42,265 nucleotides of DNA from an uncultured Candidatus Saccharibacteria bacterium (GCA_964363455.1 CAYIIM010000001.1:1-42265), one strand, 5' to 3'. Positions 1,693 to 33,066 are shown, counted from the stretch's first letter. The notes: generated by a model from the sequence alone, not told the origin. Program-made: numbers and translations.

Positions 1693-1707
1693 TAATTTAG
1701 AAACTTG

Positions 1708-3012: not shown

Positions 3013-3179
3013 AGGCCGTCAACCATTTTTTGCGAAGGTTGACAAGTTATTAAAGCATTATCTACAATAAGGTTAGCATGGGGATTTGTCGGAGGCGATG
3101 GCAAAAACCGTTGTTTTTCCGACAATCTTTTTTATATAATGGGTGTTTTTCATTTTATGCACGAGGGAGGTGACTAGAG

Positions 3180-3383: not shown

Positions 3384-3396
3384 TCGCGCTCAAAAG

Positions 3397-4605: not shown

Positions 4606-4747
4606 GAATTCGAAGAGTGTCCGATTTCCTAAGAAACTCCATTGATCTTATCAAGTAAGCTCGAGTGACAATTCGATCCGTAACATTCGCTCCGTCTAAT
4701 GCCGAAACGAAGTACACAAGCGATAGCCGCGACGAGTCCTCTGCAGC

Positions 4748-5296
4748 GTGCCGGTACCATCTGTACACTATAGGGTTGTTAACTGCCTTGGAATCCAAAG
4801 CCACCTCTACGATACCGGTTGCCGCATTTCTGAGGGATTGATGGTCGACTTCGCGAAGATCGACATGCGCAATCGTGAAGTCGCCGTGGAGGGAAAAGGA
4901 AACAAGCGAAGAGTGGTCTTTCTAGGCGGTTCGCTCGAATGGATTGAGCGGTATCAAGCCCAGGGCCATTCTGGTTTCACGAATCAGTATGGCCGCAGGC
5001 TCCGACGTCAGGACGCGCTCAATGCGATTAAGGGAATGGCTGTTTCGGCGGGGATCCAGAAGAGAGTCACGCCCCACACGCTTCGTCACACATTCGTCAC
5101 CTACCTGATTTGGGCGGGTGTCGATCCGCGCACTGTCCAGATGATGGCGGGTCACGACGACATTGACACAACGTTGCGATATTACTCGGCAGTGACACAT
5201 GATCGCATGAGGCAATCGCACAAACTCCTAATGCGTGCACTAGACGGTCGCGGGATTGACCTTCGGGTGCCTATCGGCACGGGGGCCCGGACTTAG
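4748..5296 (+). CDS. Tyrosine recombinase, catalytic domain only (N-terminal core-binding domain missing; likely truncated)
   Basis: LYDTGCRISEGL (catalytic Arg box), HTLRHTFVTYL, GHDDIDTTLRYY. There is an in-frame stop at 4724, and only ~140 nt separate this ORF from the preceding gene, so no room for the N-terminal domain. Confidence 0.7.
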   Translation: MPVPSVHYRVVNCLGIQSHLYDTGCRISEGLMVDFAKIDMRNREVAVEGKGNKRRVVFLGGSLEWIERYQAQGHSGFTNQYGRRLRRQDALNAIKGMAVSAGIQKRVTPHTLRHTFVTYLIWAGVDPRTVQMMAGHDDIDTTLRYYSAVTHDRMRQSHKLLMRALDGRGIDLRVPIGTGART

Positions 5297-5419
5297 GATC
5301 AGAGTTATCCCCATTTGCTGGTTGATGTGATCGGTGATAGGATCAGAATCGAAAGGGTATTCCTTCAATGGGATTCCTCTGAGGGCATGACAGAATCCCG
5401 CTTACGAATTGCCTAGAAA

Positions 5420-5448
5420 CATCCCCACGCAAGTGGGGGTGTTTTGTT
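5420..5448 (+). terminator. Intrinsic terminator at the compositional boundary
   Basis: Stem catccccac/gtgggggtg with GCAA loop, followed by ttttgtt. Confidence 0.6.
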
Positions 5449-5505
5449 ATAATTAACTTAATAAGAGTTCAGACTCGAAAGGTCGAGAGATGCTTATAAA
5501 TTGAA

Positions 5506-6039
5506 ATGATTAAAAAATTATTTTTAGTTTCGTTTATGGTTTTGGCTTTAGCCGGGGTGGCTCAGGTTCATGCGCAAGATGTTCCGGCTGGAGATACGCC
5601 TGTGGAAAATTCGGGCGATGTTAATATTTCGATCGATCTTGATGGTAAGGGAGATGGAGCCCAGATTGTAGTAGGCGCGGATGGCAAGTGTACGGTCAAC
5701 GGAGTGGAAGTGGATTGCGACGAAGCTGCGGAAAATTTCGGAAAGGGATTTGGCGCTTTTTTTGGAGCTGGAATCGCTTTTGTCCTCATTTTCTTTGTGG
5801 TCGGGATTTTAGCCTTTATTTTCTGGATTATGATGTTGGTTCACGCCATCAAATATCCGGTTGACAACAAGGTGTTGTGGATAATATTGATGGTGATAGC
5901 TGGGGTGCTTGGTTCGATTATTTATTATTTTGCGGTTAAAAGGCATTATGGAAAGATGGGAATGCCAATGAATAATGTCCCACCGAGTATGCCACCAAGT
6001 AATCCGCCGACGATGCCGCCAACGAACACGGGGCAGTAG
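5506..6039 (+). CDS. Membrane protein with PLDc_N-like C-terminal membrane motif and Pro-rich tail
   Basis: Signal peptide MIKKLFLVSFMVLALAGVAQVHA. FWIMMLVHAIKYPVDNKVLWIILMVIAGVLGSIIYYFAVKR resembles the cardiolipin-synthase N-terminal (PLDc_N) motif. Confidence 0.6.
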   Translation: MIKKLFLVSFMVLALAGVAQVHAQDVPAGDTPVENSGDVNISIDLDGKGDGAQIVVGADGKCTVNGVEVDCDEAAENFGKGFGAFFGAGIAFVLIFFVVGILAFIFWIMMLVHAIKYPVDNKVLWIILMVIAGVLGSIIYYFAVKRHYGKMGMPMNNVPPSMPPSNPPTMPPTNTGQ

Positions 6040-6048
6040 GAAGAAAAT

Positions 6049-6077
6049 AAAAATACCCCTTAAATAGGGGTATTTTT
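6049..6077. terminator. Bidirectional hairpin terminator
   Basis: aaaaatacccct / aggggtattttt arms with loop taaat; A-run before and T-run after. Confidence 0.6.
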
Positions 6078-6087
6078 ATTTTAGTAT

Positions 6088-6165
6088 TTAATTGCCGTCG
6101 TCGTCTTTGCCGGGGAAGTCTTTATCGATGCGTTCGGAGACTTTCATTTTGCGGAAGAGGAAGTT
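6088..6165 (-). pseudogene. Orphan 3' fragment of an mgtC-family gene (last ~25 codons)
   Basis: Encodes NFLFRKMKVSERIDKDFPGKDDDGN*, matching the C-terminus of the intact gene at 7324 (LFLFRKMKVSERIDKDFPGKDDDSS*). 6097-6156 equals 7333-7392 with 1 mismatch. Confidence 0.65.
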
Positions 6166-6216
6166 TTATTTAGCCACCAGGGTCTAGCCAATAGGGTAAA
6201 AAAAGCAAAAATCACC

Positions 6217-6531
6217 TTAACGTCGGTTTCCAGCTTGCTCAACTAAGCCAATCTTTTTGTGAAACACTTGGGCAATTTTATTAAGAGTTACGATAGATAA
6301 GCCATGGGAACCGGATTCGATTCGAGCTATAACGGATTGGGGCATGTCGGCTTTCTCGGCCACTTCTTTTTGAGTCATCTTCCTTTTTTGGCGCAAGGTT
6401 TTGATTTCGTGGGCTAGTTGGAGTCGTCCCATTTCTTCGGAGAATGATTTTCTGAAGCGTTCACTTTTAAGCTTTTTAACGATGATTTTATCGAGAGGAG
6501 TGAAATTGTATTTTTTGGTTTGTTTTTTCAT
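6217..6531 (-). CDS. XRE-family HTH antitoxin (HigA-like)
   Basis: MTQKEVAEKADMPQSVIARIESGSHGLSIVTLNKIAQVF is a classic Cro/C1 HTH. There is a 4-nt ATGA overlap with the upstream toxin gene. Confidence 0.75.
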   Translation of the reverse strand: MKKQTKKYNFTPLDKIIVKKLKSERFRKSFSEEMGRLQLAHEIKTLRQKRKMTQKEVAEKADMPQSVIARIESGSHGLSIVTLNKIAQVFHKKIGLVEQAGNRR

Positions 6532-6836
6532 TTTAGAAAAGTTTGTGTTTTTAGACCTTTATAAATTTTCTCGGCTTTTTCAATGATTCGTTTAGGTGTT
6601 TTCTGGCTTTGCTTTTTGAAGGCGTCTACTATATAGATAGTTCCACCTATGTTGAAAAATATTATTCTATACTGCCGGACAACTATTTCTTTGATTTTAT
6701 CTTTGAGAGTTTTGATTAAGAGTCCTTCGGTGTGACTTTCTTCGAGAGATTTTAGGTGAGCGAGGATTTTGGCAGAATCATCATCTTTTAACCTATCGAG
6801 AAACTTGCGAACATCTTCAAGAATTCTTACGTCCAT
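6528..6836 (-). CDS. RelE/ParE-superfamily toxin (HigB/Gp49-like)
   Basis: 102 aa. YRIIFFNIGGTIYIVDAFKKQSQKTPKRIIEKAEKIY matches the Gp49/HigB C-terminal pattern. Toxin-first gene order. Confidence 0.7.
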   Translation of the reverse strand: MDVRILEDVRKFLDRLKDDDSAKILAHLKSLEESHTEGLLIKTLKDKIKEIVVRQYRIIFFNIGGTIYIVDAFKKQSQKTPKRIIEKAEKIYKGLKTQTFLK

Positions 6837-6985
6837 GAATTTATACGGTATTCAGTTTTTATTGTTTCACTATTAGTATAGCAAAATTGCTATACCTGTC
6901 AAATGTGTGGGCGTGAGTTATGCTGGGCCGATTTGGGCGAAGAGGAGGTGGAGATTCTATATTAAGCACTAGCCACTAGGTTTTT

Positions 6986-14876: not shown

Positions 14877-15620
14877 TTACTTTGGCTGACCTTCGGAGGC
14901 TTTTCGAAATGCTTTTACGATCGGTTCCATGTTACCTTCTAGTATATTCTCAATCATCGAGAATTTTTTTCCGATACGATGATCGGTGATGCGGTCGTCG
15001 GGGAAGTTGTAAGTGCGGATTTTTTCCGATCGGTCGGCAGTGCCGATTTGATCCCGACGAGTCTCTGAGATGTTGCCTGAGACTCTTTGTTGTTCCATCT
15101 CGTAAAGTTTTGCTCTTAAGACCGCCATGGCTTTTTCGCGGTTGGAAAGCTGAGATCGTTCTTCGCGGGAGCCGACGACGATACCAGTGGGTTTGTGGAG
15201 AATTCTGACCGCCGTTTCCACTTTGTTAACGTTTTGCCCGCCGGGACCACCAGCGCGAGTGAAGGTGACTTCGAGGTCGGAGTCTTTGATGTTGATCTCT
15301 TTGGCTTCAACAAGCGGCAAGATAGCGACAGAGGCAGTGGAGGTGTGAACGCGGCCGGCTTTTTCGGTTTTGGGGACGCGTTGGACGCGGTGGACGCCGG
15401 ATTCCTGTTTCAACTCCTCGTAAGCGCCTTCACCAGAGAGTTCGGCGACGAGGGATTTGTAGCCATCAAGAGAGGTTTGGTTGGTGTCTAGAATATGAAA
15501 ACTCCAGCCGCGTTTTCCGGCGTAGCGTTGGTACATTCGGGCCAAGTCGCCAGCAAAGATAGCAGCTTCGTCACCGCCCGCACCCGCTCTGATTTCTACA
15601 ATGATTTTATGAGTAATCAC
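14877..15620 (-). CDS. prfA: Class I peptide chain release factor, RF1-type, lacking domain 1
   Basis: [35 protein letters not shown] (PxT-type tripeptide), [37 protein letters not shown]. 247 aa, aligning from about residue 105 of E. coli RF1. GTG start, only ~90 nt from the divergent neighbour. Confidence 0.85.
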
Positions 15621-15709
15621 GAATATACAAATTAGTTTAATATACGAATAAACGGAGGTAAGTGATTGGGGATAGCCAGTTTCCTAGGGGGTATGTTATC
15701 ATAAGTTGT

Positions 15710-16126
15710 ATGAATAATCCACCTTTGGTTTTAATTGTTGACGACGAAGAAAACTTTCGCGAGATTTTTTCCACTAAACTTGAAGAAGTCGGTTATAAAG
15801 TGGAAACGGCGGTCAATGGTGAGCTTGGATTTGAAAAAGCCAAGGAGACTAAGCCAGATTTGATTTTAATGGATATGGAGATGCCGGTTTTAAATGGCGC
15901 CGGAGCGACCATGAAGCTTAGGGAAGATAAGGAAACTCAAGGGATAAAGATTGTTTTCCTTACAAATTATGGTGATCCGAGGTCGGAGATGCGTGAAGCC
16001 GATATACATTTTTCGAAAGAGATTGGAGCAAATGATTATCTTAGGAAGACAGATGATTTAGATCGCATTGCCGATAAAGTGAAGGAAATGCTTGAAGTTG
16101 GCCAGGTAGTAGAAAGTAGTAAGTAG
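15710..16126 (+). CDS. Stand-alone response regulator receiver domain
   Basis: LVLIVDDEENFREIF...PDLILMDMEMPVLNG...IVFLTN. Start taken at ATG 15710. Confidence 0.8.
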   Translation: MNNPPLVLIVDDEENFREIFSTKLEEVGYKVETAVNGELGFEKAKETKPDLILMDMEMPVLNGAGATMKLREDKETQGIKIVFLTNYGDPRSEMREADIHFSKEIGANDYLRKTDDLDRIADKVKEMLEVGQVVESSK

Positions 16127-20729: not shown

Positions 20730-20786
20730 GATTTTATTAAATCATCTTTTAGAGTTCCGAGAACTACATTATTGGAAAATAAAATC

Positions 20787-22178
20787 ATGAAAAAATTACT
20801 TATCGGTTTTGGAGCTTTGGCAATCGCTTTGCTTTTAGCACCAGGCTTTTTGGCTTTTGAAGCCCACGTGGTCAATGTGACTGCGAAGATCGAGAATGCT
20901 TTGAGCGTTCCGATCGAATCAATCGACTTTGGAACGGTGTTCCCTCAGGAGCAGTTGAACGAAGCGCTTGGAATCAGCCTTTCCCAATCCTTTATGGATG
21001 AGGATCGAGTTGATGATGTTGATTACTTTATCCGTCAGAAGCCAAAGTGTGGTATTACTTCTGATGACGGAAAAATATTAGATCATTCCAGCACTGCGAC
21101 GGGACATGTCCATGTCGGCGATGTACCACAAGACAGCACTACCATAACCCAGCAATTTGAGGGTTATTATGTTGACTGTGGTCCATTACCTCGACGTTTG
21201 ATGGATGTAGATCTTCCAGAGACAGCGTGGAATGATATTGAATCATACGGCATGTTGCCATTCCTTTGTCCTTACATTTCGAAGCACTCCGATGGAGCGC
21301 CAGCTAACGATGGAAATTTGAATTCTTTCCACGAGCCGTTCCAGGTTTCCGGCAATTCGATTGTTTGGAATGATACACCGGGTCACTTGGCGAAAGCCCA
21401 GAATGACACGGTTGATAACTGGATCATTGATTTGGCGGTGCCATGTTTTGGCGGCGAATGCGCTCAAGACTGGGCCAGTTTTGTTAACGGCTTTAATCCG
21501 TTAGCGAATCCAGACGATTACACTCAGCCGACCACAGACGAACATAAGATCTTCGGTTGTGATCTTTGGGTAGAAGTCGGCGGGATTAGCCTTCCAGGTT
21601 TGGGTTGCAAAGGCAAGATTGACTTGATGCTCGTCGTGGATGAATCCGGCAGTATTGGTTCGACCAATATGGACGCGGTGAAGTTAGCTTTGCACAGCTT
21701 CATCGACGCTTTAGTGCTTGCAGTTGACGGACCAAATGCTGGTCAGACCAGCTTTGCTTCGATCGGTGTCTTGGATCAGGAGCTTACATCGAGCTCAACT
21801 GAGATGCACGCGGCTATTGATACATTATTTTCTGGCGGTTTAACCAATTTATCTGCTGGTATCGCTTTGGCGAATGACGAATTTAATAGCGTTCGAGACC
21901 GAGCGGATGCGCCGAACATGATGATTGTCATCACTGATGGAGTACCGAATGTTTGTTATGTTAGTGGTTGTGGAGATCCAGCAGTTGAAGCGGCTGGATA
22001 CGCAACTGTAGCAAAAGCGGACGGGACGGAAGTTTTCGTGGTTGGTATTGGTTCAGGTGTGGATGCGACCTACTTGCAGACTTCTATTGCAAGCGCTCCT
22101 TCAGCGAGCCATTACTTTGCCGGAGACTTTGCCACTTTAGAGACAACTTTCGCGGATTTAATTGCTTGCGAAGAATAA
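20787..22178 (+). CDS. Secreted Cys-rich protein (paralog A) with SipW-type N-terminal signal and C-terminal vWA domain
   Basis: MKKLLIGFGALAIALLLAPGFLAFEAHVVNVTAKIENAL. Shares FGTVFPQE, DDVDYFIRQKPKC, DLAVPCFGGECAQDW and KIFGCDLWVEV with 22413 and 27293. vWA with MIDAS at IDLMLVVDESGSIG...LTNLSAG...VITDG. Start moved to ATG 20787 by homology with paralog B. Confidence 0.8.
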   Translation: MKKLLIGFGALAIALLLAPGFLAFEAHVVNVTAKIENALSVPIESIDFGTVFPQEQLNEALGISLSQSFMDEDRVDDVDYFIRQKPKCGITSDDGKILDHSSTATGHVHVGDVPQDSTTITQQFEGYYVDCGPLPRRLMDVDLPETAWNDIESYGMLPFLCPYISKHSDGAPANDGNLNSFHEPFQVSGNSIVWNDTPGHLAKAQNDTVDNWIIDLAVPCFGGECAQDWASFVNGFNPLANPDDYTQPTTDEHKIFGCDLWVEVGGISLPGLGCKGKIDLMLVVDESGSIGSTNMDAVKLALHSFIDALVLAVDGPNAGQTSFASIGVLDQELTSSSTEMHAAIDTLFSGGLTNLSAGIALANDEFNSVRDRADAPNMMIVITDGVPNVCYVSGCGDPAVEAAGYATVAKADGTEVFVVGIGSGVDATYLQTSIASAPSASHYFAGDFATLETTFADLIACEE

Positions 22179-22323
22179 CTAAAGTCGTGATCAAACTTTC
22201 TCTTGTGTAAAAACAAGAGAAAGATTTGGTCGCGATGGGCCCTCCGCCTTTCTTTGGGAACGAATATAAGCAAAAGAAAGGCGTGTGGCCGATAGGCGGT
22301 CAAAATAAAAAGGTCGAGTAAAT

Positions 22324-22358
22324 TAGAAAGTAGCGAGTAGTGAGTAGAAAGTAGAAAG
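22324..22358 (+). repeat. AGTAG-rich repeat, copy 2
   Basis: tagaaagtagcgagtagtgagtagaaagtagaaag, directly after the AAGGTCGAG motif at 22310-22318. Confidence 0.55.
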
Positions 22359-22412
22359 ATTCACTGCAAACTACAAAAAATAAATAACTCTCTTAGTTGA
22401 AAAAATAAAATC

Positions 22413-23270
22413 ATGAAAAAATTACTTATCGGTTTTGGAGCTTTAGCGATTGGTGTGGCGTTAGCACCAGGCTTTTTGGCTTTTGAAGCCCACGTGGTCA
22501 ATGTGACTGCGAAGATCGAGAATGCGCTCCAAGTGACGACAAACTCGATTGATTTCGGGACGGTGTTTCCTCAGGAGCACTTGAAGCAGCCACTCGGTAT
22601 TAGTCTTTCGGGTTCTTTTATGGCTGAAGACAGAGTAGATGATGTCGAATATTTCATTCGACAGAAGCCAAAGTGTGCGATTACTTCAAACGGTGGTTTA
22701 TCGTTTGATCCGTTGAACACCGCGACTGGTCATATCCAGCTCGGTGATAATCCAGCTACCCAAGAAGATATTGAGACTTATTGGATTGATTGTGGTCTAG
22801 CGCCAAGGATCTTGGCGGTTGACGACACCGCAACTCCTTTAGTCAACGAAGCAGAATCTTGGGGTGTTTTACCTTCGCTTTGTGAATACATTTCCAAAGA
22901 AGGTCCAGATGCAAATGATAGCGACACCGCTTCGTTCCACACACCGTGGACAGTTGTTCAGGGTGATAACGCATCTACCACAGCTGTTGAAACTTCTTGG
23001 ATCAATTGGACTGACACAAAGGGCCGATTAGCCAAGTCTGAGCAAGACACGGATGATGCGTGGGTCATCGATCTCGCGGTTCCATGTTTTGGCGGATTCT
23101 GCGCTCAGGATTGGGCTGATTTCGTTGCCGGAATCAACGCCGATGCTGATCCGAATGCTTATACCCAACCAATTGGCAACGAACACAAAATTTTCGGTTG
23201 CGATTTGTGGGTAGAAGTTTCTGGAGTTTCGGAAGCTTCAATTGAAGTTCCACCAACTCCAGATCCGTAG
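22413..23270 (+). CDS. Secreted Cys-rich protein (paralog B), candidate major subunit
   Basis: 285 aa. N-terminus MKKLLIGFGALAIGVALAPGFLAFEAHVVNVTAKIENAL. Same conserved blocks as paralog A but no vWA domain. Confidence 0.8.
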   Translation: MKKLLIGFGALAIGVALAPGFLAFEAHVVNVTAKIENALQVTTNSIDFGTVFPQEHLKQPLGISLSGSFMAEDRVDDVEYFIRQKPKCAITSNGGLSFDPLNTATGHIQLGDNPATQEDIETYWIDCGLAPRILAVDDTATPLVNEAESWGVLPSLCEYISKEGPDANDSDTASFHTPWTVVQGDNASTTAVETSWINWTDTKGRLAKSEQDTDDAWVIDLAVPCFGGFCAQDWADFVAGINADADPNAYTQPIGNEHKIFGCDLWVEVSGVSEASIEVPPTPDP

Positions 23271-23495
23271 TTGAAAGTTAAATTTCCGAAAGGAAGTTTA
23301 GTTAGTAAAAAATCCTTATACCCCTCCCCAGTTTTTCAAAACTGGAGAGGGGGAGAGAGGATGTGATAAGAGGTGTCTCGCCGTTAAAACTTCGTAAATG
23401 GAGTCGCAATGGCAAAGGTCGGGATAGTAGCACCTTAATAATTAAGAATTTTGTGGATATAGACATAAATCAGGGACTGTGTAATAATCTTGGAT

Positions 23496-23993
23496 ATGGA
23501 AAACAATAGCTCTAAAAGAGGGTTGATGCCATGGATGGAAAAGCAGGCCGGTCGGCCGCTTAAAACCTCGGACAAGGTAATTGGGATTATCCTAGTTATC
23601 ATCTTCCTTTTCGTTTTTTACGTCGTCTTAGATGCCAATAAGTACAAGATGCAGGTGGTGGTGATTGATGGCGAAGGCAAAGTGGGAGTTAATCCAACGA
23701 CAGAGCTTTTAGACTTTGGCGATATGTCTCGGGGAACAGAATCGGTCAGAACGGTGACGCTTAACAATGGCACGTTTATGCCCGTCTATGTTTTAGTGTG
23801 GCAAACAGGAAGACTTTCCGAGATCGTAAAGGTGACGGACAGGAATTCCGGTGAACCCGCCCAAGCTTTTAAGCTTAAATCCGACACAGAAGTAAAGTTA
23901 GAATTTGGCGCCAGGATGCCAGCGTCGGCAGCGATTGGCGACAAGTACACAGGCCGAGTCTTTATCTTCAAAATTCCTACCTTCGGACTTTAG
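23496..23993 (+). CDS. Single-pass membrane protein with beta-sandwich-like ectodomain
   Basis: TM segment VIGIILVIIFLFVFYVVL, then LDFGDMSRGTESVRTVTLNNGTFMPVYVLV (DUF1573/Ig-like pattern). First gene of the tightly packed block that contains the signal peptidase. Confidence 0.65.
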   Translation: MENNSSKRGLMPWMEKQAGRPLKTSDKVIGIILVIIFLFVFYVVLDANKYKMQVVVIDGEGKVGVNPTTELLDFGDMSRGTESVRTVTLNNGTFMPVYVLVWQTGRLSEIVKVTDRNSGEPAQAFKLKSDTEVKLEFGARMPASAAIGDKYTGRVFIFKIPTFGL

Positions 23994-23999
23994 TTGGGA

Positions 24000-24530
24000 A
24001 TGGAGAATGACGAACTAGTAGAAAAAGATTTCGAATCTGATTCGGAAGCGGATCTTGAGGATCGAAAAAAAGTTCCGAAAAAGAAGAAAAGCAAAATTAA
24101 AAGCTTTATCTGGAATTTTGTTTTCTACATCGTCATCGTCGGCGGAATTATTTTTGGTTTGCCAAAGATATTGGTGTGGGCGCTCGATACCCAATATCCG
24201 ATGGCGGCGATTACCTCGGGTTCGATGTGGCCAGTCCTTAAAACCGGAGACATGGTTTTTATCAAAGGAGTGACTGTCCTCGAGCAAATAGAACAAGGAG
24301 ATATTATAGTTTTCCAGAGCGATTCGAATGGAACGCTGACCATTCACCGAATTGTTTCGATTAAAGAAGGGATTATTACCACCAAAGGCGACGCGAACTT
24401 TACCGAGGATACCCCGATCAGTTTTGATAAAGTAGTGGGAAAAACTTTGAATTGGAAGGGAGATAAGCCGGTACGACTTCCATACTTGGGATCAGTAACA
24501 AATTTATCAACGCGACTTAGAAATAAATGA
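24000..24530 (+). CDS. Signal peptidase I, Sec11/SipW type (S26B)
   Basis: TM segment FIWNFVFYIVIVGGIIFGL. AITSGSMWPVLKTGDMVFI (Ser box), LTIHRIVSI (His general base rather than Lys), TTKGDANFTEDTP. ATGA overlap with the next gene. Confidence 0.8.
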   Translation: MENDELVEKDFESDSEADLEDRKKVPKKKKSKIKSFIWNFVFYIVIVGGIIFGLPKILVWALDTQYPMAAITSGSMWPVLKTGDMVFIKGVTVLEQIEQGDIIVFQSDSNGTLTIHRIVSIKEGIITTKGDANFTEDTPISFDKVVGKTLNWKGDKPVRLPYLGSVTNLSTRLRNK

Positions 24531-27289
24531 CCGGGAAAAATTTGAAAAAAAATAAATACGTGGATTCAATTTTAGTTAACAATCCCGAAGAAAAGCAGAA
24601 TAGCCAAAAAATTGGGAAAGTTTTGCGCGCTAAAAAAGAATCGCAGATGAAACCCGTTTTTTATAAGACAGTTTTGAATAAGGTTAAAAAAATAGATTTT
24701 TTTGATTTAATTTTTGGTTCGATTGGGCGGGCTTTTAAAAAGACATTTTTTATTTGGAAATTCTCGTTAGCCCTTTTGCTTTTAGTGAGTATTGTGCCAC
24801 TGTCCGCTTTTGAAGCGCACATTACCAATGTGACAGCCACGATTTTCAATATTGATCCGCCGGTAATTACACCGCCGGGGGGAAATTATAACGGTCCGGT
24901 GGATATCATGATCGATGACAATGATCCAGATGCGACGCATATTTTTTACACGATTACGCCGGGAACGGATGCCGGGGTGGCGCCAGATCCGGCTTGCGGA
25001 GTTTTGCCAGGAGCGGCAAAACCGATTGGGCCGATTACGCTCTCGGATGACTCAGTGGTTAAAGCAATCGCTTGTGATGGACCAGACGGTTCGGCGCATC
25101 ATAGTTTAATTACGACAGAAATTTACGATTTAACTTTAAAAGCGAAGATTGAAGGGAGGAAATATAATGATTTGGATTTAAGCGAAGGTCTGACGGTTGG
25201 CGATACGACAGTGGAAGGGTGGAGAGTGGATCTGAAAATTGGGACTTCGACGATTGCGACCACCGTGACGGACGCCACGGGTTATTATGCTTTTAACAAT
25301 CTTGATCCGGCGACTTATACCGTGGTTGAAGAATCGCGGACGGGGTGGCAGTCGGTGTCGCCAACTAGCGTTTCGGTGACGATTCTTGGAAGTGAGACAA
25401 AAACAGTTGATTTTTTCAACTTTGATAGTGGGTATGCCTGTGTTCCTGGAGTAGTGAGTTTCCCAAATCATTTGGCGGTACTCGCGGCGGGAAACGGAAG
25501 CGGGAATGATGATGTGGTGTTGGGAACGAATGTGACGGTTAACGGCGATGTGCGATCGAATGACGAGATTGAAAGAAGCGCGAGCAGTACCAGCCAGTCG
25601 ATTAATGGCAATGCGACAGTCGTTAATGGAATTGACCTTGGGATTTTCATCTCTGGCGCGTCAACGACTGGGGCGTCGTCTGTCACGCTTCCAAATATTA
25701 ACATCGCGAACTGGAAAGCTCGGGCTCATGACGGTGGCGTGGTGAACGGTAGTTTTAATTTTCCCAATAATCTTTCTGGGATCGTGATGGGGCCGACGGA
25801 AATTATGGGCAACTTAACCTTTGGTAGCTCCAATGGATTGATTGTTCGTGGGCCGATGTATATTCACGGCAATTTGACGATTGGAAGCAACACAACAATT
25901 ACCCAAGACGGAGCGTTTGCGGATCAGTTTGCGACAATTATTGTGGATGGATTAATTTCGATTGCCCCGGGCGTCACATTTAACGGGGCGGGCGCAGATG
26001 GAGCATTTCTTCTCGTCTCAACTCGAACGGCGGTTTTGGGCGATGGGGCGGCGATTGATGTGGCATCGGATAATTCTGATTTAGGAGATGCGGTGCTTTA
26101 CGCTTCAAATGGTGATGTTCACGTGAGAGCCAACCGGAATATTTTGGCGGCGTTCGCGGCTCATGGCACGGGATTAGATAGCAACAATAACGGCGCGGTT
26201 TTATTGGATTCGAATGTGGTTGTAAACTATCGAACTTTGCCAAATAAGATTTCTTGCGGACCGAGACAGCCATACGATTTGACGAGCCATGTGATTATCA
26301 ACGAATTTATGCCGAATCCAAGCGGGAACGATTTGGGAACGGCAGGCGGGTCTTTGGATGGGGAGTGGGTGGAAATCTTTAATCCGATGGGAGCGTCGGT
26401 GGATCTTGCCGGTTATGTTTTGTACGATGGAGACAACACTCACGCGCTTGCACTCACCGCTTCGAACTCAAATACAGGATCACTTACAATTCCGAGTGGA
26501 GGATACGTAGTGATTTACCGTGAGGGTGATGTCGATTTTGAATTAAATAACAGCGGAGGGGACACAGTCCGGCTTTTTAGTGGGCCGATTGAATTAGGCG
26601 GAACTTTGGTGGATAGCCATCTCTTCACGCGGGATGCTCCGGACAACAAATCTTTTGCCAGGGTACCAGATGGTTCAAGTAACTGGGTGGATCCAGATTC
26701 AACCCCGGGTGAGCCCAATGAATTTTTCTTTGAGATGTTGCCAGGCGAGGATGACGCCTTTGATGGAGTAGCAAAGCCACCGATGATTATTCCTCGGATT
26801 GACGAAGATTATTTAGATGAGATGCCTGTTGATGTTTTAGAAGTTGAAGAAGTTTTAGTTGAAGATGTTCAGGTTGTGGAAGAAACCGACATTGAGGCGA
26901 AGAGTACGGAAATGCAAGTAGAGTTTCAAGGTGGTGGCGGTGGAAGCGGTATCCAACCGGTTACTGAAGATAATGACCAACCGGCGGACGATTTAACCAG
27001 CGAGGCAAGTTCAACGCCAGAGGAAAATCCAGTTTTGCCTCCCACTGAAGAAAGCTCGATGTCGTCTGAAGACCAGGTTGTTGCGCCAGTTGATACTTCA
27101 AACACCCAAGCAGAATCTGACAGCGTGCCAACGAGCGAGAGCCAAACTGAAGCCGCTTTGCCGGAAGAAAGTGCGGCAGTTTCGGAACCCATTGTCGATA
27201 ATTCTGGGGGAGGAGGAGATGGCGGTGGCAGTGACGGAGGCGAGCAACCCCAGCCTGCTCCGAGCCCAGAAGAAACACCAACTAATTAA
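24527..27289 (+). CDS. 920-aa surface protein: SipW-type N-terminal motif, Ig-like and Cna-B/SdrD-like modules, beta-helix region, lamin-tail (LTD) domain, acidic Ser/Pro-rich tail
   Basis: LLLLVSIVPLSAFEAHITNVTATIFNI. GWRVDLK...TDATGYYAFNNLDPATYTVVEESRTGWQ. Repetitive NG(D/N)V/TI stretch. LTD: VIINEFMPNPSGND...GEWVEIFNPMGASVDLAGYVLYD...FELNNSGGDTVRLF...TPGEPN. Confidence 0.8.
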   Translation: MTGKNLKKNKYVDSILVNNPEEKQNSQKIGKVLRAKKESQMKPVFYKTVLNKVKKIDFFDLIFGSIGRAFKKTFFIWKFSLALLLLVSIVPLSAFEAHITNVTATIFNIDPPVITPPGGNYNGPVDIMIDDNDPDATHIFYTITPGTDAGVAPDPACGVLPGAAKPIGPITLSDDSVVKAIACDGPDGSAHHSLITTEIYDLTLKAKIEGRKYNDLDLSEGLTVGDTTVEGWRVDLKIGTSTIATTVTDATGYYAFNNLDPATYTVVEESRTGWQSVSPTSVSVTILGSETKTVDFFNFDSGYACVPGVVSFPNHLAVLAAGNGSGNDDVVLGTNVTVNGDVRSNDEIERSASSTSQSINGNATVVNGIDLGIFISGASTTGASSVTLPNINIANWKARAHDGGVVNGSFNFPNNLSGIVMGPTEIMGNLTFGSSNGLIVRGPMYIHGNLTIGSNTTITQDGAFADQFATIIVDGLISIAPGVTFNGAGADGAFLLVSTRTAVLGDGAAIDVASDNSDLGDAVLYASNGDVHVRANRNILAAFAAHGTGLDSNNNGAVLLDSNVVVNYRTLPNKISCGPRQPYDLTSHVIINEFMPNPSGNDLGTAGGSLDGEWVEIFNPMGASVDLAGYVLYDGDNTHALALTASNSNTGSLTIPSGGYVVIYREGDVDFELNNSGGDTVRLFSGPIELGGTLVDSHLFTRDAPDNKSFARVPDGSSNWVDPDSTPGEPNEFFFEMLPGEDDAFDGVAKPPMIIPRIDEDYLDEMPVDVLEVEEVLVEDVQVVEETDIEAKSTEMQVEFQGGGGGSGIQPVTEDNDQPADDLTSEASSTPEENPVLPPTEESSMSSEDQVVAPVDTSNTQAESDSVPTSESQTEAALPEESAAVSEPIVDNSGGGGDGGGSDGGEQPQPAPSPEETPTN

Positions 27290-27292
27290 CCA

Positions 27293-28396
27293 ATGACGAA
27301 AAAATCATTAATCATTGTGGCGCTTCTAGGAGTCGGAGTGATGATTGCTTTAAACGCATTTCAAGTGAGTGCGACTAAGTGTGAGATTAATCCGGATTTG
27401 TCGGTGACGCCGAACATTATTTCTTTTCAAACGGTTTTTCCGGGGGAGGTTCATTTTAAACCGCTGGACGTTGATCTTTCGAGTTCATTTATTGAAAATC
27501 CGATTTACGATGATGTTGAATATCGAATTGTTCAGAAACCTAAGCCAAAAAAAGATACCGCGTGGGATAGGGCTTATTGCGCAGCTCATCCGACGGATTA
27601 CAACAAATGTTATCGTTCGCTTTGTCCCTATCTATCTAAGGAAGTTGACGGCACGCCCGCCAATGATACAGGAGTGCCGGCGTATCATAATCCAAATGCC
27701 AGCTCGAGCATTGCTTTAGGCCGGTTGGCGAAGTCTGAAGAGGATACAGAGGATAGATGGACGATTGATTTGCACGCGCCGTGTTTTAAGGGTGAATGTG
27801 ACCAAACCAATTCAGTGGCGGAGGAATATCAATTAAATCCCGCGTGGCGTGGAGAAACTTTTGGTTGTGATTTGGTGGTTGAGGTTTTAAGCGTCAGTTA
27901 CTCGAAAGCAGTGACGAGGACCCAAGGTTTTTGGCAGACCCACACGGCGTTTACTTCAAATATTTTTTCCACCAAGTTAGGCGGAACGATGAATGTTGGG
28001 ACATCAACGCACGTGAGAGCGGTGACAAACATTCAATCAAGCGGCCAGAGTCGGCTTTTCGGAGCTTTCTACTCCAGCATTCCAAAGAAGACAAACAATG
28101 TGAATCGAACGCCTTTGGATAAGGCGCGAGTGCAACTCTTACAACAGTTGGTGGCGGCAAAATTAAATTGCGCCGCTTTCGATTGTTCCTCAGCGAATCA
28201 AGCTTTAATCAACCAAGCCGATGCGGCTTTCGCCGGAAATTCCACGATTGCGATAAATAATTTGATTCCGCTCCTTACTACTTTTAACCAAAGCGGTGAT
28301 GTAATTCCAATCCCGCCAGCACTGGGAAATCCTGGATCGGCAACTCCCAGCACTTCGCAATCTTGGGCAAATAAAGTTTTTTGGGATAATCCCTAA
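27293..28396 (+). CDS. Secreted Cys-rich protein (paralog E) with distinct C-terminal extension
   Basis: Signal ending ALNAFQVSATKCEINP. Shares FQTVFPGE, DDVEYRIVQKPKP, LCPYLSKEVDGTPAND, GRLAKSEEDTEDRWTIDLHAPCFKGECD and FGCDLVVEV with paralogs A and B. Confidence 0.75.
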   Translation: MTKKSLIIVALLGVGVMIALNAFQVSATKCEINPDLSVTPNIISFQTVFPGEVHFKPLDVDLSSSFIENPIYDDVEYRIVQKPKPKKDTAWDRAYCAAHPTDYNKCYRSLCPYLSKEVDGTPANDTGVPAYHNPNASSSIALGRLAKSEEDTEDRWTIDLHAPCFKGECDQTNSVAEEYQLNPAWRGETFGCDLVVEVLSVSYSKAVTRTQGFWQTHTAFTSNIFSTKLGGTMNVGTSTHVRAVTNIQSSGQSRLFGAFYSSIPKKTNNVNRTPLDKARVQLLQQLVAAKLNCAAFDCSSANQALINQADAAFAGNSTIAINNLIPLLTTFNQSGDVIPIPPALGNPGSATPSTSQSWANKVFWDNP

Positions 28397-28651: not shown

Positions 28652-28791
28652 GAAAAGTTGATTATTGGGTTCTGGATTCAAGAATTTTTTAAAAAAGAAT
28701 TTTTGAATCCGGAACTCTTTGCTTTTAGCGAAGAGGGATGGGGAAAGGTCGAGTAAGAAAAAAATTAAATCTATAGATTTAATACTAAATA

Positions 28792-29652
28792 ATGAAAAAA
28801 ATTTTATTAGTTTCCTCTTTGGTAGCTGTGATGGTCATTGGTGGAGTCTCTCCAGCTTTGGCGACTGGCTTCGGAGAAGGATGGTTTGATGGTTTTGACG
28901 GAGACGAGACGACCGTTAAGAACACTAACGAAGCGTCAGTTTCAAACAGTGTAACAGTTTCAGCTTCAACTGGTGGCAATGATGCCAACGGTGGAGATGG
29001 AAGCAACGGTGGCGATGGTGGCCGAGGCGGCAGAAATGCTGGCAACGGTGGCCAGGGCAGCCGAAACGGCGACGGCGGCAATGGTGGCAACACCGGCGAC
29101 GGCGGCAACGGCGGAGCGGGCGGAGACGGAGGCTGGGGTGGAGAGATCTACACTGGCTCAGCTTCAGCTTGGTCTGAAATTGAAAACACTGTTAACACCA
29201 ACAAAACAAAAGTTGAAGGTTGTGGTTGCGAAGAAGAAGAGAGTTCAGAATATGAACTTCCTTGGTTTTTTGGTCACAACAATGGTGACAAACTCACCAT
29301 CCGAAATCGCAATAGCGCCAGCGTTTCTAATAGCGTTGAAGTTAAAGCGAAGACCGGACACAACGATGCAGATGGCGGCAATGGTTCAAACGGTGGTGAT
29401 GCCGGAAAAGGCGGATCCAACGCGGGTGATGGCGGAGACGCCGGAACCAGCCACAGCGGCCACTTCTGGTGGTTCTTTGGTGGTGAAGACGAAGGCGGTA
29501 ACGGCGGCAATGGTGGCAACACCGGCGACGGCGGCAACGGCGGAGCGGGCGGCGAAGGCGCTCTTGGTGGTATCATCGAGACCGGCGACGCGGATGCTGG
29601 TTCAGTGGTTGTAAATTCGGTCAACAGAAATGTGACCCGAGTTCGAAACTAG
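28792..29652 (+). CDS. Secreted Gly/Asn-rich repeat protein (two ~120-aa units)
   Basis: Signal MKKILLVSSLVAVMVIGGVSPALA. Units NEASVSNSVTVSASTGGNDANGG...GEIYTGSASAWSEIENTVNTNKTKV and NSASVSNSVEVKAKTGHNDADGG...GIIETGDADAGSVVVNSVNRNVTRV. Confidence 0.75.
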   Translation: MKKILLVSSLVAVMVIGGVSPALATGFGEGWFDGFDGDETTVKNTNEASVSNSVTVSASTGGNDANGGDGSNGGDGGRGGRNAGNGGQGSRNGDGGNGGNTGDGGNGGAGGDGGWGGEIYTGSASAWSEIENTVNTNKTKVEGCGCEEEESSEYELPWFFGHNNGDKLTIRNRNSASVSNSVEVKAKTGHNDADGGNGSNGGDAGKGGSNAGDGGDAGTSHSGHFWWFFGGEDEGGNGGNGGNTGDGGNGGAGGEGALGGIIETGDADAGSVVVNSVNRNVTRVRN

Positions 29653-29762
29653 CCTGTCTGGGGCGAGCGAGCTCTTTAAAAAGAGTTCGCTCCCTCGCTA
29701 AAGAGAGAAAACTTTGATCGGTAGTTCTTTTTAGCGAGGGTATCGAAATCCTCGGGTCACAC

Positions 29763-30272
29763 ATGGAGCATACGTTTAAAAAATTACTTTGTTTCAGCTT
29801 AATGGGAGGCTTTGTATTTGCCGGGTCTTTTGGTTTGGCGTTAGCGGATAATGTCTCGATTCAGAATAATGTCAGCGTTTCGGCCGAGACTGGCGGGAAT
29901 ACCGGCGCCGTGACTAATGAAGGCAAGGCGAGTGTGGATATTCGCGTTGAGAGTGAAGTAGATGGAAAAAAACAAGCGCCGGTGATTGTTCACGAAGAGA
30001 CAGTGGGCGGAAAGATTGAAAAAGAGATTGAAGTGGAGTCGGAAGACGGAGTGGTGAAAACCAAAATCAAAACTTCGGCGGAAGCGGAGAGCAATTCTGA
30101 TACGAGCGGGGTTTCGGCGAATGGTGAAGATGGGGAAGATGGCGACGATGGAGTTGAAACTGTGAGCAGTAAAGTGACGGTTTCGAGTAAAAGCACTTTT
30201 CTGGCTTCGGTGGGAGAATTTTTTGCAAACGTTGGAAATAGTATTTGGACGTCGATAAAATCAATTTTTTAA
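29763..30272 (+). CDS. Secreted acidic protein carrying one copy of the N-x-V-S-x-S-A-x-TGGN half-motif
   Basis: Signal-like FSLMGGFVFAGSFGLALA, then DNVSIQNNVSVSAETGGNTGAV. Confidence 0.65.
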   Translation: MEHTFKKLLCFSLMGGFVFAGSFGLALADNVSIQNNVSVSAETGGNTGAVTNEGKASVDIRVESEVDGKKQAPVIVHEETVGGKIEKEIEVESEDGVVKTKIKTSAEAESNSDTSGVSANGEDGEDGDDGVETVSSKVTVSSKSTFLASVGEFFANVGNSIWTSIKSIF

Positions 30273-30276
30273 ACAT

Positions 30277-33066
30277 ATGAAAAATCAAAAAAACATTTTA
30301 AGAATTTTAGCGACGGGGTTTGTGGTTTTAAACCTCGTTTTGTCACCTCTGCCAGTTTTTAATTATCACGCAATTGCGCAGGAGGCGTCGCCGGCTGAGG
30401 AGCAGGTGATTCCGCCAGTGGAAGAGCAAGTAGTACCTCCAGCCGAAGAAATTCCGCCCGCGGATGAAATAACCGAAACCACAAGCCAGGAAACTCCGGC
30501 AGAAGAAAATACCGGGGAGCAGATTTCTAATCCCGAAGAAGAGGCGTTAACCGAAGGAACTCCGGGTCAAGAGGGTGAAAGCGGCGTGGATGGAGAAGAC
30601 GGAATTCCAGATGAAGACGCCGAGCCAGAACTAACTAATGAAGAGGAGGATGTACTCGATAACGCATCATCAACGGATGATGGCAATTCTTCGTCAACTA
30701 ATGAAGGAGTTGGGGTTGGAGAGAGCGGGGAGGATGGTGAAGATGGAGCGAATGGGGATGATGGCGGAAGCAATGGCGGGGGTTTGCCGGCGATAATTGA
30801 TACGGGTGACGCGGCGGCGGCGGCGAACATCTTGAATATGGTGAATTTGAATATCGTTGACTCAGAAGGCTGGGTGAACTTTATGAATCTTTTTGGCGGA
30901 CTTTTGGGTGATGTGGATTTGAGTGATGTCACTTTTCCGGAGAGTGATCGCTGTCAGTCGGATGAATGTGAGGCGGCGCGATTGGAAGGAAGAAGGAATT
31001 TTGAAAATGAAAACGACGGCGAGATTGATAACAATGTGAATGTTGGCGCGGGAACGGGAGGTAATGAAATTACCGGCACGGGCGAGATTTATACTGGCGA
31101 CGCGGCCGCGGCGGCGAACGTGGTGAATGTTTTGAACACCAACATCATCCGTTCGAATTATTTGATTTTAGCTTTGAATAGTTTTGGAAATTTTGATGGG
31201 GATTTGGTTTTGCCCGGCGCTTCGTTTTTTGAGCAGTTGTTTGGCGGCCGAGGCGAACCGAGAAGCGAGCAGACGATTCCGCCTTGTGAGCAAACTCTAG
31301 AAATTGAAAACGACAACCAGGCGGAGGTGAGTAATACTGGTGATACCGTGGCGGAGACGGGAGGTAATGAAGTTGAAGACGGTGACGGGGCGGTGATCGA
31401 AACTGGAAATGCTGACGCGCTTTCTAATACCGCGAACTTAGTGAATTCAAATTATTACAACAGCTCACCGGTTTACATTTTGGTGAGAGTGACGGGGCGA
31501 TGGAATGGAGATGTTTTCAGTGTGCCGCCGGGATTAAAGTGGGAGGAAACCCCGATGGGAATTTTGATCACATCGGACGATGATGCGGACGGCGGAGTTT
31601 TGCCGGATGTAGAACCCGAAGCGGAATTGGTTGAGGGAGAAGTGGAAGAAGTTTCTGGAACGGAGACAAATGAAGAGGGGATTGAGTTTGGTCACGGCGC
31701 ACGGCCTTGTGAATCGTCAGATTTGATTCAAAACACCAACCGAGCGCGAGTGAATAACAATGTTAATGTTTTAGCTTTAACTGGAGAAAATAGAATTAAT
31801 AATGGCGGAGGGAGTTATATCGGAACTGGGAACGCTTTTGCCGCGTCGAATGTGTTTAACGTGGTTAATACAAATATTGTTGGCAGTAACTGGATTTTGG
31901 CTTTAGTAAATATTTTTGGCGACTGGGATGGGAACTTGGCTTTCGGCCGGCCCGATCTCTGGATAGGGACGCGCGCGGCGGCTTCGACTAATCCGTTGGT
32001 CGCGGGCGGATCGGTGACTTATACGATTGACGTGACAAACCATGGGGATGCAACGGCGACCAATGTTCGCGTGCGAAGCGGCAGTGATCCACACGAAAGA
32101 GTGAAGCAAAATCAAACTCCGGATAATTTGTTTGTGACGGCGTTTAGCGGGTTGTTTAGTGATGATTCCGAGGATGATAAAAATGTGGTTTGGGAAATTC
32201 CATCTTTGGCGCCAGGCGAATCTCGAACTTTGTCATACACTTCGCAGGTGACGGACAATCCGCCGGGAGGACTCTCATCTTTTGATACGATTACTACGGT
32301 GGCGAGTACCGAGACGGATGCATCCGAAACTGACAATACTGATAAATTAACGCTGATGCTCCAGGGGGCAACGACTGGAGGAGGAGGGGGGCAGGTTTAT
32401 GTTTCGGGATTTGGCGGGGGGTATGGAAAGCCGAAACTTGAGATTTCTAAAACTTCTAACGCGGGGCCGATTGTGAACCCGAGCTCGACGGTGAGTTATA
32501 AGATTATTGTGGAAAATACTTTTGGTGATTTAGCGCGTGAGGCAGGGGTGGTTGATGAACTTCGTGATCCGAATGGCAATCTAGTCGCCGAAAATATTTG
32601 GGATTTGGGAACGATTTATTCGGGCGAGGAAATAGTGATTGATTATGACACCACGTTTAGCGCGACGGCGCCGTTTGGGACGTATGTGAATGTGGCGAAA
32701 CTTTACGCGAAAAATGATTTTGGTCAGGTTTTGGAAACAGTGATTGCTTCATCGAGTATCGTGATTGGCGTGGGCGTACCAGTTGGGCCAATGGGAACGG
32801 AGTCGGCAAGTGAAGATGGTGATAATGAAAGTGATTCAGATGATTTTTCCCTTTCTTTGTTTAAACCCGAGATTGCGATGGCTTCGCCAGAGCCGTTGCC
32901 GATTTTAGAAAAAGCGGAGTATCAAGATCAAGACAGCGGTTTGGCTTCGATCTTTTCTCTTTTTCCTTGGTTGGGATCGAATTGTTTTTTCTTGTTGATA
33001 TTGGTAATACTTCTAGCGCTTTATGTTTGGTGGAGGACGAGGAGGAAGAAAGATAGTAGTCAGTAG
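30277..33066 (+). CDS. 929-aa surface protein: acidic linker, four TGGN/TGDA/NxVNTN repeat units, DUF11/CARDB-like domains, C-terminal TM anchor
   Basis: NNVNVGAGTGGNEITGTGEIYTGDAAAAANVVNVLNTNIIRSNY. VSNTGDTVAETGGNEVEDGDGAVIETGNADALSNTANLVNSNY. NNNVNVLALTGENRINNGGGSYIGTGNAFAASNVFNVVNTNIVGSNW. GGSVTYTIDVTNHGDATATNVRV. C-terminal FFLLILVILLALYVWWRTRRKK. Confidence 0.8.
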   Translation: MKNQKNILRILATGFVVLNLVLSPLPVFNYHAIAQEASPAEEQVIPPVEEQVVPPAEEIPPADEITETTSQETPAEENTGEQISNPEEEALTEGTPGQEGESGVDGEDGIPDEDAEPELTNEEEDVLDNASSTDDGNSSSTNEGVGVGESGEDGEDGANGDDGGSNGGGLPAIIDTGDAAAAANILNMVNLNIVDSEGWVNFMNLFGGLLGDVDLSDVTFPESDRCQSDECEAARLEGRRNFENENDGEIDNNVNVGAGTGGNEITGTGEIYTGDAAAAANVVNVLNTNIIRSNYLILALNSFGNFDGDLVLPGASFFEQLFGGRGEPRSEQTIPPCEQTLEIENDNQAEVSNTGDTVAETGGNEVEDGDGAVIETGNADALSNTANLVNSNYYNSSPVYILVRVTGRWNGDVFSVPPGLKWEETPMGILITSDDDADGGVLPDVEPEAELVEGEVEEVSGTETNEEGIEFGHGARPCESSDLIQNTNRARVNNNVNVLALTGENRINNGGGSYIGTGNAFAASNVFNVVNTNIVGSNWILALVNIFGDWDGNLAFGRPDLWIGTRAAASTNPLVAGGSVTYTIDVTNHGDATATNVRVRSGSDPHERVKQNQTPDNLFVTAFSGLFSDDSEDDKNVVWEIPSLAPGESRTLSYTSQVTDNPPGGLSSFDTITTVASTETDASETDNTDKLTLMLQGATTGGGGGQVYVSGFGGGYGKPKLEISKTSNAGPIVNPSSTVSYKIIVENTFGDLAREAGVVDELRDPNGNLVAENIWDLGTIYSGEEIVIDYDTTFSATAPFGTYVNVAKLYAKNDFGQVLETVIASSSIVIGVGVPVGPMGTESASEDGDNESDSDDFSLSLFKPEIAMASPEPLPILEKAEYQDQDSGLASIFSLFPWLGSNCFFLLILVILLALYVWWRTRRKKDSSQ

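Follow-up and report, generated by a model that had tools for sequence, protein, structure and literature searches.

The operon described here occupies positions 20787 to 28396 of a 42,265-nucleotide contig (CAYIIM010000001.1:1-42265 of assembly GCA_964363455.1, labelled as an uncultured Candidatus Saccharibacteria bacterium), which was analysed over its whole length and is termed the window. It encodes an S26B (Sec11/SipW-type) signal peptidase together with four secreted proteins, A, B, D and E, and a membrane-anchored protein, C. Proteins A, B and D share a near-invariant segment, termed the tag, directly after a hydrophobic N-terminal segment, and A, B and E share a cysteine-rich core. The association of the tag with the peptidase and the existence of a new protein family are solid; the mechanism by which these proteins might form a fibre is unproven. 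That mechanism, to which we give about an even chance, would couple SipW-like cleavage to assembly through N-terminal strands, with a new family of subunits, and would produce a Patescibacterial surface structure. The contig belongs to a Patescibacteria metagenome-assembled genome (MAG), in agreement with the cell type of the Candidate Phyla Radiation (CPR) proposed in an initial annotation, which was made from the sequence alone and read the locus as a candidate donor-strand fibre or pilus system. The features of the operon are as follows.

20787–22178, + strand: A (463 amino acids), composed of a signal peptide, the tag, the Cys-rich core and a C-terminal vWA domain with a metal-ion-dependent adhesion site (MIDAS)
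20856–20903, + strand: tag of A, FEAHVVNVTAKIENAL, straight after a hydrophobic segment ending in ...APGFLA
22413–23270, + strand: B (285 amino acids), composed of a signal peptide, the tag and the core only; candidate major subunit
22482–22529, + strand: tag of B, FEAHVVNVTAKIENAL
23496–23993, + strand: C, with an N-in membrane anchor and an extracellular immunoglobulin (Ig)-like β-domain of about 115 amino acids, without the tag
24000–24530, + strand: S26B (Sec11/SipW-type, Ser-His-Asp) signal peptidase, assigned by profile match and catalytic blocks
24527–27289, + strand: D (920 amino acids), composed of a long N-terminal region, a hydrophobic segment and the tag, followed by an adhesin body lacking the core
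24809–24847, + strand: tag of D, FEAHITNVTATIF
27293–28396, + strand: E (367 amino acids), composed of a signal peptide, a degenerate tag, a minimal core and a C-terminal 'GFWxTH' domain
28669–28715, + strand: inverted repeat with a 20-bp stem downstream of E, a possible operon terminator by consensus match only

The tag and its conservation

The tag has the form FEAH[VI][VI]NVTAxI(EN), is preceded by an alanine and directly follows the hydrophobic segment in A, B and D. The same 16 residues, FEAHVVNVTAKIENAL, are found in A and B after a hydrophobic segment of about 20 residues, and D has the variant FEAHITNVTATIF. The shared segment noted in the initial annotation is therefore present in these three proteins, with a degenerate version in E, where the alanine is followed by FQVSATKCEINPDL; the E-type paralogues of other genomes contain a shortened segment without FEAH. 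The FEAH motif occurs three times only in the six-frame translation of the 42-kb window, and these three occurrences are the tags of A, B and D.

The tag is invariant across 53 aligned homologues that are only 55–71% identical to B overall, and the core proteins of the genome loci described below fall to 34% identity to B. Representatives selected at 50% identity retain [FYW]E[AS]H..NVTA.IEN, such that in distant members the first residue can be Y or W and the third S, with H..NVTA.IEN kept. At the genome loci, the residue preceding the tag phenylalanine is alanine in 99% of 131 core-type and 94% of 34 non-core proteins. Residue frequencies (%) along the 131 core-type tags are F100 E100 A100 H100 V87 I76 N100 V98 T94 A100 x I100 E92 N98 A95 L94. 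A hydrophobic stretch precedes the tag in all 361 tag-bearing open reading frames (ORFs) of related loci, with a median Kyte–Doolittle hydropathy of 2.14 and 99% of values above 1.5 (mean of the 18-residue segment that stops one residue short of the tag). The combination of tag and hydrophobic segment is far beyond chance.

The tag is also modular, being carried both by the core family and by unrelated adhesin bodies. In the non-core proteins, likeness ends about 14 residues past the presumed Ala–Phe cleavage site and unrelated bodies follow. These include sequences beginning IDPPVxTPPGG... (D-like), LTD, CBM_4_9, SdrD_B, DUF11, DUF4215 and DUF642 domains, and a 'C..LS.GYWRNH' domain that occurs in many tag-only proteins and also forms the C-terminal half of E in the window.

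Many tag-only proteins contain a cysteine 1–8 residues past the conserved tag isoleucine, for example in IERRPSQC, IEPPPC, ICDYS and IEGC (loci L003, L008, L011, L013, L014, L025, L027, L053, L055, L058, L059, L062, L065 and others). This cysteine, which is absent from the D-like proteins (IDPPV...), could pair within the protein or with a partner subunit.

Within the tag, hydrophobic residues alternate as V.V.A.I, a pattern that is read from the sequence and is found in known donor strands; this alternation and the length of the tag would be those of a β-strand buried on both faces. AlphaFold models the tag region of monomeric B at low confidence and without secondary structure (mean predicted local distance difference test (pLDDT) values of 55 and 71 in blocks of 10 residues, and below 50 at residues 30–32), and the rest of the model is confident. 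Because no other part of the family is as conserved, and because the tag is unpacked in the model of its own protein and portable between unrelated proteins, it probably acts through contacts between molecules. Cleavage between the alanine and the phenylalanine would be the most economical reading, the alanine at position −1 fitting the rule for signal peptidases. A copper site at an N-terminal histidine (a 'histidine brace', with cleavage at FEA/H) or an amino-terminal Cu(II)- and Ni(II)-binding (ATCUN) site was considered and set aside, because unrelated bodies also carry the tag and because the model does not show it packing on the core. The NVT of the tag is also an N-glycosylation sequon, which may have a role.

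Association of the tag with an S26B signal peptidase

The peptidase of the window scored 84.0 bits against TIGR02228 (sigpep_I_arch; cut-off 51.85) and 25.8 bits against Peptidase_S26 (cut-off 22.9), and aligned to human SEC11C and SEC11A (7p2q and 7p2p; E = 2e-7) with conservation of the SGSMxP, HR[IV] and TKGDxN..D blocks. The S26B catalytic residues are the serine of SGSMxP, the histidine of HR[IV] (a lysine in LepB) and the aspartate of GDxN..D. With the Bacillus SipW equivalog model NF046067 it reached 51.4 bits, for a cut-off of 190. It is therefore a genuine S26B enzyme, as annotated initially, and no orthologue of SipW. At one related locus (L070), a second S26B-like ORF (15425–15931) lies about 3.4 kb downstream of the operon peptidase.

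A large protein collection contained 983 homologues of B, and those with a named source were all labelled as Patescibacteria, Parcubacteria or a Parcubacteria-type candidate phylum; variants bear a C-terminal vWA, SpaA_2 or PA14 domain. An exhaustive profile search resolved the core family into 598 clusters at 50% identity, with the core starting almost always at residues 1–10. Gene order was examined at 75 loci of species-representative genomes, surveyed by ORF calling and phmmer. The order of one to four tag-plus-core paralogues, C, peptidase, one tag-only protein and sometimes an E-type protein recurs across these loci, which bears out the proposed co-directional operon; the tag-only protein often bears an LTD domain. 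The lineages represented are Ryan-, Vogel-, Uhr-, Doudna-, Giovannoni-, Wildermuth-, Azam-, Taylor-, Harrison- and Portnoybacteria, and Paceibacterota.

The peptidase was found at 49 of the 50 testable genome loci; the exception (L023) begins at a contig end, with the D- and E-type genes first. Immediately after the peptidase, 38 of 49 loci encode a protein that has the tag under a strict pattern and no core, and nearly all of the remaining genes in this position encode variant tags such as AFEASVVNVTA or AYEAHVIGVTA. Protein C is encoded next to the peptidase at 56 of the 75 loci. Metagenome contigs were also scanned with the back-translated tag alone, which removes the bias of core-based searching. 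This identified 187 tag ORFs in 117 loci, 147 of them with the core and 40 without. The peptidase or C was present at 61 of the 117 loci; wherever a locus extended for at least 3 kb in both directions, one or the other was present. A frequent occurrence of the tag away from an S26B peptidase, named in the initial annotation as a refutation, was thus not observed, and the two belong together; the neighbouring enzyme very probably processes the tag proteins at or next to the tag.

Three operon contigs (L047, L048 and L067) are labelled as 'uncultured Gammaproteobacteria' or 'Bacteroidales' MAGs, and many are labelled 'Candidatus Saccharibacteria' while their named relatives are of Parcubacteria type. 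These discordant labels are probably artefacts of binning or labelling.

The core family and C-terminal domains

The three core proteins of the window are paralogues, as had been proposed: A and B are 61% identical (E = 4e-109), and B and E are 32% identical (E = 2e-27), with E lacking a central insertion. The description of the core as a Cys-rich domain outside any named family also stands. No Pfam or NCBIfam family matched the cores of A, B and E, none relevant was matched in Pfam by the 53 core homologues, and a core profile searched against all PDB sequences with hmmsearch gave no matches at E ≤ 10. The AlphaFold model of B, computed from the 53-sequence alignment, is β-rich (pLDDT 88.5; predicted template modelling score 0.78). 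Cannulae, Hyper2, FimA and Ena3A were among the weak Foldseek matches of this model; they lack significance and carry no weight here. Six core cysteines are invariant (C88, C127, C157, C225, C230 and C263), and all of them could be engaged intramolecularly instead of in the lock between subunits suggested initially.

The domains appended to the core and to the tag include vWA and others of adhesin type. The vWA domain of A (PF00092, residues 279–453, E = 3e-19) has the intact MIDAS attributed to it, the pattern DxSxS...T...D being visible as DESGS, GGLTN and ITDG. The body of D includes the expected LTD domain together with SdrD_B, a CHB_HEX_C-like region with a sub-threshold score, and an acidic, Pro-rich tail. 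The C termini of A, B, D and E contain neither an LPXTG motif nor a transmembrane segment.

Protein C

The AlphaFold model of C (pLDDT 89) consists of an N-in transmembrane helix followed by an eight-stranded β-domain, consistent with its earlier description as a membrane-anchored β-protein. Its Foldseek neighbours have modest E-values (1e-3 to 6e-2), most of them with high Foldseek probability. These neighbours comprise the chaperone–usher subunits DaaE, DraE and AfaE, a type 1 fimbrial protein of Burkholderia, PapD-like, ASH and MSP domains, and the chaperones DraB and Caf1M. Sub-threshold matches of C to Cep192_D2 and choice-of-anchor-D agree with these structural neighbours. A relationship between C and the core was rejected, the hhalign comparison of the two giving a probability of 1%.

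Proposed assembly mechanism

We infer cleavage at the Ala–Phe bond, strand insertion, polymerization and the role of each protein as follows. A, B, D and, weakly, E would be exported through the Sec pathway and stay tethered to the membrane through their hydrophobic N-terminal segments, and the adjacent S26B peptidase would cut at A/FEAH. The cut would free a β-strand-like segment of about 14–16 residues, FEAHVVNVTAKIEN, which, having no place in its own fold, would dock into an acceptor site in the core of another subunit (donor-strand insertion) and so join the proteins into a polar fibre. Proteins with both tag and core (B, and A with its lateral vWA domain) would donate and accept, and so form the shaft. 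The product of the gene that follows the peptidase, a protein with the tag alone (D here; proteins with LTD, SdrD_B or CBM bodies elsewhere), would donate only, as a nucleator or tip adhesin, and would consequently sit at one end of the fibre, like TapA for TasA. E-type proteins, with a core and a defective tag, would accept only. The membrane-anchored, Ig-like C would cooperate with the peptidase, serving as platform, chaperone or base.

The initial annotation had included E as a variant subunit that plugs into the filament. The plug-in tag does not hold up, being degenerate in E and mostly non-functional in its relatives. E is therefore not simply a plug-in variant, and is more likely to be a strand acceptor than a donor.

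Several observations weigh against this mechanism. Position −3 is often F (also L or I), which is tolerable for type I signal peptidases and unusual for them. Known donor strands differ between the subunits of one pilus, and the near-invariance of the tag across hundreds of lineages exceeds what polymerization needs; it hints at a further constraint, such as recognition by the peptidase or by C. The acceptor groove is assumed and not seen, because the core has no detectable likeness to TasA, AbpA or any solved pilin, and a Foldseek search of the B model against the PDB returned noise (best E-value 0.17, TM-scores of at most 0.39 and root-mean-square deviations of 13–30 Å). The S26B enzyme, moreover, may be either an additional, dedicated peptidase or the only signal peptidase of the cell. 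The excess conservation of the tag suggests several simultaneous partners (the peptidase, C and every paralogous core), and it also keeps alive two rival explanations, docking to C for display and a function as an extended recognition signal only.

The Patescibacteria, mostly uncultured and with very small genomes, presumably live in attachment to other cells. To our knowledge, little is known of Patescibacterial attachment apart from type IV pili. The operon is spread over many Parcubacteria-type lineages and encodes vWA and other adhesin-type domains, from which a role in host attachment appears plausible. In a broader and more tentative proposal, which we favour less than the mechanism itself, the locus would define a new class of surface filament, assembled by cleavage-coupled insertion of a universal plug strand (FEAHVVNVTAKIEN), with an unmatched subunit fold, any of several adhesin bodies (vWA, LTD, SdrD-B, CBM or DUF11) and a membrane-tethered PapD/pilin-like platform, acting as a host- or substrate-attachment organelle of episymbionts. 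If the tag is a universal donor strand, a further phylum and a new subunit fold would join the range of SipW-dependent fibre assembly, the surface adhesins of these organisms could be catalogued by a simple marker, [FYW]EAH..NVTA.IEN behind a signal peptide, and protein engineering would gain a compact plug and socket in the tag and its acceptor. Should it be a sorting tag only, the locus would still provide a new pair of enzyme and cognate signal that merits a family model.

Alternative explanations

The alternative that survives best, which we nevertheless consider unlikely, is that the tag serves surface display, docking one-to-one into C or staying on the peptidase–C complex, so that adhesins are held at the cell surface without forming a fibre. 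C is a universal member of the operon, adjoins the peptidase and is anchored in the membrane, and its pilin/PapD-like Ig fold is of a strand-accepting type; the tag is found on many unrelated bodies, and its near-invariance would suit a single common receptor. The model of C, however, is a complete eight-stranded domain predicted with high confidence. Display would also leave unexplained why a core is present at a fixed distance behind the tag in one to four copies per operon, and the known SipW-linked systems are polymers.

Somewhat less probable still is a function of the tag solely as an extended recognition or quality-control signal of a dedicated peptidase, with no structural role after cleavage and with independent adhesins as the products. 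The strict tie between tag and peptidase agrees with this explanation, as does the general background that SipW-type enzymes have cognate signal classes such as TIGR04088. The initial annotation had named this signal model as a check; A, B, D and E were unmatched at E ≤ 1 in NCBIfam, a search in which HMMER filters may drop very short, weak matches. Signal peptidases, however, read few residues at the scissile bond, and here 14–16 residues on the mature side are conserved, far positions included, with strand-like alternation. The equivalent conserved post-cleavage segment of TasA proved to be a donor strand (PMC10151520).

It is improbable that the hydrophobic segment is an uncleaved signal anchor, with the tag as a membrane-proximal stalk and the peptidase a general signal peptidase with no specific link to these proteins. 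The hydrophobic segments have the length of a transmembrane helix (about 20 residues), and phenylalanine at −3 fits the −3/−1 rule poorly. These features are opposed by the alanine that precedes the tag phenylalanine in 94–99% of proteins, the classic residue for position −1, and by the position of the peptidase gene, which lies within the operon and overlaps or abuts its neighbours across lineages. Other secreted proteins of the window (28792–33066) have ordinary signal peptides and lack the tag.

Membership of the core in the TasA/camelysin family was rejected, and the suggested homology drew no support from any of three approaches. PF12389 was unmatched at E ≤ 1 by A, B, E and the 53 homologues. 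The hhalign probability was 9.8% for the core against TasA and 22% against a profile of 40 TasA-family sequences, both alignments pairing only the signal peptide and the 'AAF' junction of the two families (over 36 columns in the latter); the TasA query was confirmed against 8aur_A (504 bits). A jelly-roll fold like that of 5OF1 or 8AUR was not found by Foldseek with the B model, TasA, AbpA and camelysin being absent from the 50 best-ranked matches listed. It is thus very improbable that A, B and E have an extremely divergent TasA/camelysin/AbpA jelly roll and that the locus is a Patescibacterial tasA operon, despite the similar operon logic, the aligned signal peptide and 'AAF' and the PF12389 homologues reported in Patescibacteria (PMC9245690), since the six invariant cysteines and the conserved blocks of the core likewise have no TasA counterpart.

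Comparison with known systems

By enzyme type, operon logic and probable mechanism, the locus belongs with the SipW-dependent matrix and fibre systems assembled through N-terminal strands. In Bacillus subtilis, TasA protomers are joined by insertion of an N-terminal strand, TapA donates only its N terminus, its own Ig fold being complete, and tapA overlaps sipW (PMC10151520). Like tapA-sipW-tasA, the operon of the window has an S26B-type peptidase gene inside the operon, several substrates with a common conserved post-cleavage segment, and one partner (TapA or the D-type protein) that has the N-terminal strand, lacks a polymerizing body and is encoded by a gene overlapping that of the peptidase. 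The N-terminal segment is disordered in the monomer, as it is in TasA. By contrast, the core showed no likeness to TasA in sequence, profile or fold searches and contains six invariant cysteines, C is an additional, universal membrane-anchored Ig-like component, the peptidase is not a SipW orthologue, and the tag is nearly invariant and carried by many unrelated adhesin domains.

The sipW-bsaA-bsaB-bsaC operon of Clostridium perfringens includes a vWA protein, and BsaA undergoes donor-strand exchange from membrane-tethered precursors before SipW cleavage, with an Asn–Lys isopeptide lock (PMC11580942). The two operons have in common a SipW-type peptidase, paralogous matrix subunits and a vWA protein, and the same mechanism is proposed for both; they differ in that BsaA and BsaB are remote TasA homologues and in that A joins the vWA domain and the subunit core in one chain. 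By analogy with BsaA, the asparagine of NVT in the tag (N30) might form an isopeptide lock with Lys85 or Lys87 of RQKPKC, which is speculation. N30 and K85 are invariant in the alignment of 53 homologues, and K87 and E55 are near-invariant.

The likeness to chaperone–usher pili (Fim, Pap, Dr/Afa and Caf1) consists in the proposed completion of a neighbour's Ig-like fold by an N-terminal extension, in the proposed polar fibres, whose tip adhesin would be confined to one of the two functions, and in the fold of C, which is nearest to Dr/Afa subunits and PapD-like chaperones. Unlike those systems, the operon belongs to a Patescibacterium, in which there is no periplasm, and relies on S26B processing. 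No usher or two-domain PapD chaperone was found among the window ORFs, C being a single Ig-like domain on a transmembrane anchor. Archaeal bundling pili (AbpA/AbpB) and other archaeal donor-strand filaments are built from β-rich subunits processed by signal peptidase I and joined by an N-terminal donor strand, as proposed here, and the bundling pili also include an accessory protein whose distal domains are adhesin-like (PMC9245690). Their operon, however, was found to contain no dedicated peptidase (PMC9245690), and AbpA has a TasA-like jelly roll, to which no likeness was detected here.

Sortase pili resemble the system in their operon-encoded processing enzyme and in the combination of a shaft subunit with vWA-type and Cna-B/SdrD-type adhesins. 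Here, by contrast, there is no sortase and no C-terminal LPXTG, the signal is N-terminal and the enzyme is a signal peptidase. In type IV pili, class III cleavage takes place before the hydrophobic segment, whereas the tag lies after it. As noted initially, no sortase or type IV pilus family was matched among the window ORFs. The locus is neither a chaperone–usher, a sortase nor a type IV pilus system. Its distinctive features are the unannotated core fold with six invariant cysteines, the membrane-anchored Ig-like partner and the plug-like tag on many adhesin architectures. Full-text literature searches that combined the lineage (Patescibacteria, Parcubacteria or CPR) with elements of the system (SipW, TasA, donor strands, or a signal peptidase together with adhesins) yielded no account of it; the sole link found there is the existence of PF12389 homologues in Patescibacteria (PMC9245690), which are a different family.

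Gene layout and other features of the window

The ORFs and coordinates of the operon, and the tight junctions from C to E, were as initially annotated. The C stop codon ends at 23993 and is followed by the peptidase start at 23994 (TTG) or 24000 (ATG), a junction of 0–6 nt; an ATGA at 24527 overlaps the peptidase stop with the D start; and 3 nt separate the D stop (27289) from the E start (27293). The C product has 155 amino acids in the NCBI call, from which a start near 23526 was calculated. The 5′ DNA of A and B is near-identical from 14 nt before the ATG to about +120 (20773–20910 and 22399–22536), and identity falls beyond. Because this near-identity extends to synonymous sites, the two 5′ ends have apparently been homogenized recently, which suggests gene conversion or recent duplication of an export/tag module.

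The perfect-looking inverted repeat at 28669–28715, located between E and the gene that follows, is trailed by a T-rich tail and is the strongest terminator-like site in the region. A promoter and terminator scan gave counts no higher than the shuffled expectation, this 20-bp hairpin after E alone being notable.

At one end of the window, positions 1–6900 have a G+C fraction of 0.50–0.535, compared with 0.41–0.48 elsewhere, and encode a replication-relaxation protein (1708–2700, − strand), a phage-type integrase (4748–5296, + strand) and a Gp49/HTH_3 toxin–antitoxin-like pair (6217–6836, − strand). This region is probably an integrated mobile element. A release factor ORF at 14877–15620 (− strand) matches only positions 101–194 of PCRF, plus RF-1. 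It has no upstream continuation in any frame and no CTTTGA frameshift site nearby, and looks like an N-terminally truncated release factor.

Downstream of the operon, three secreted proteins encoded at 28792–33066 share the repeat 'N.V.V.A.TGGN...TGDA.A..N..N.N'. The first is Gly-rich, and the third (929 amino acids) has DUF11 repeats and a C-terminal transmembrane anchor. Relatives of these proteins adjoin tag-plus-core genes at three of the genome loci (L037, L041 and L073), and the trio may represent a second set of surface proteins linked to the operon.

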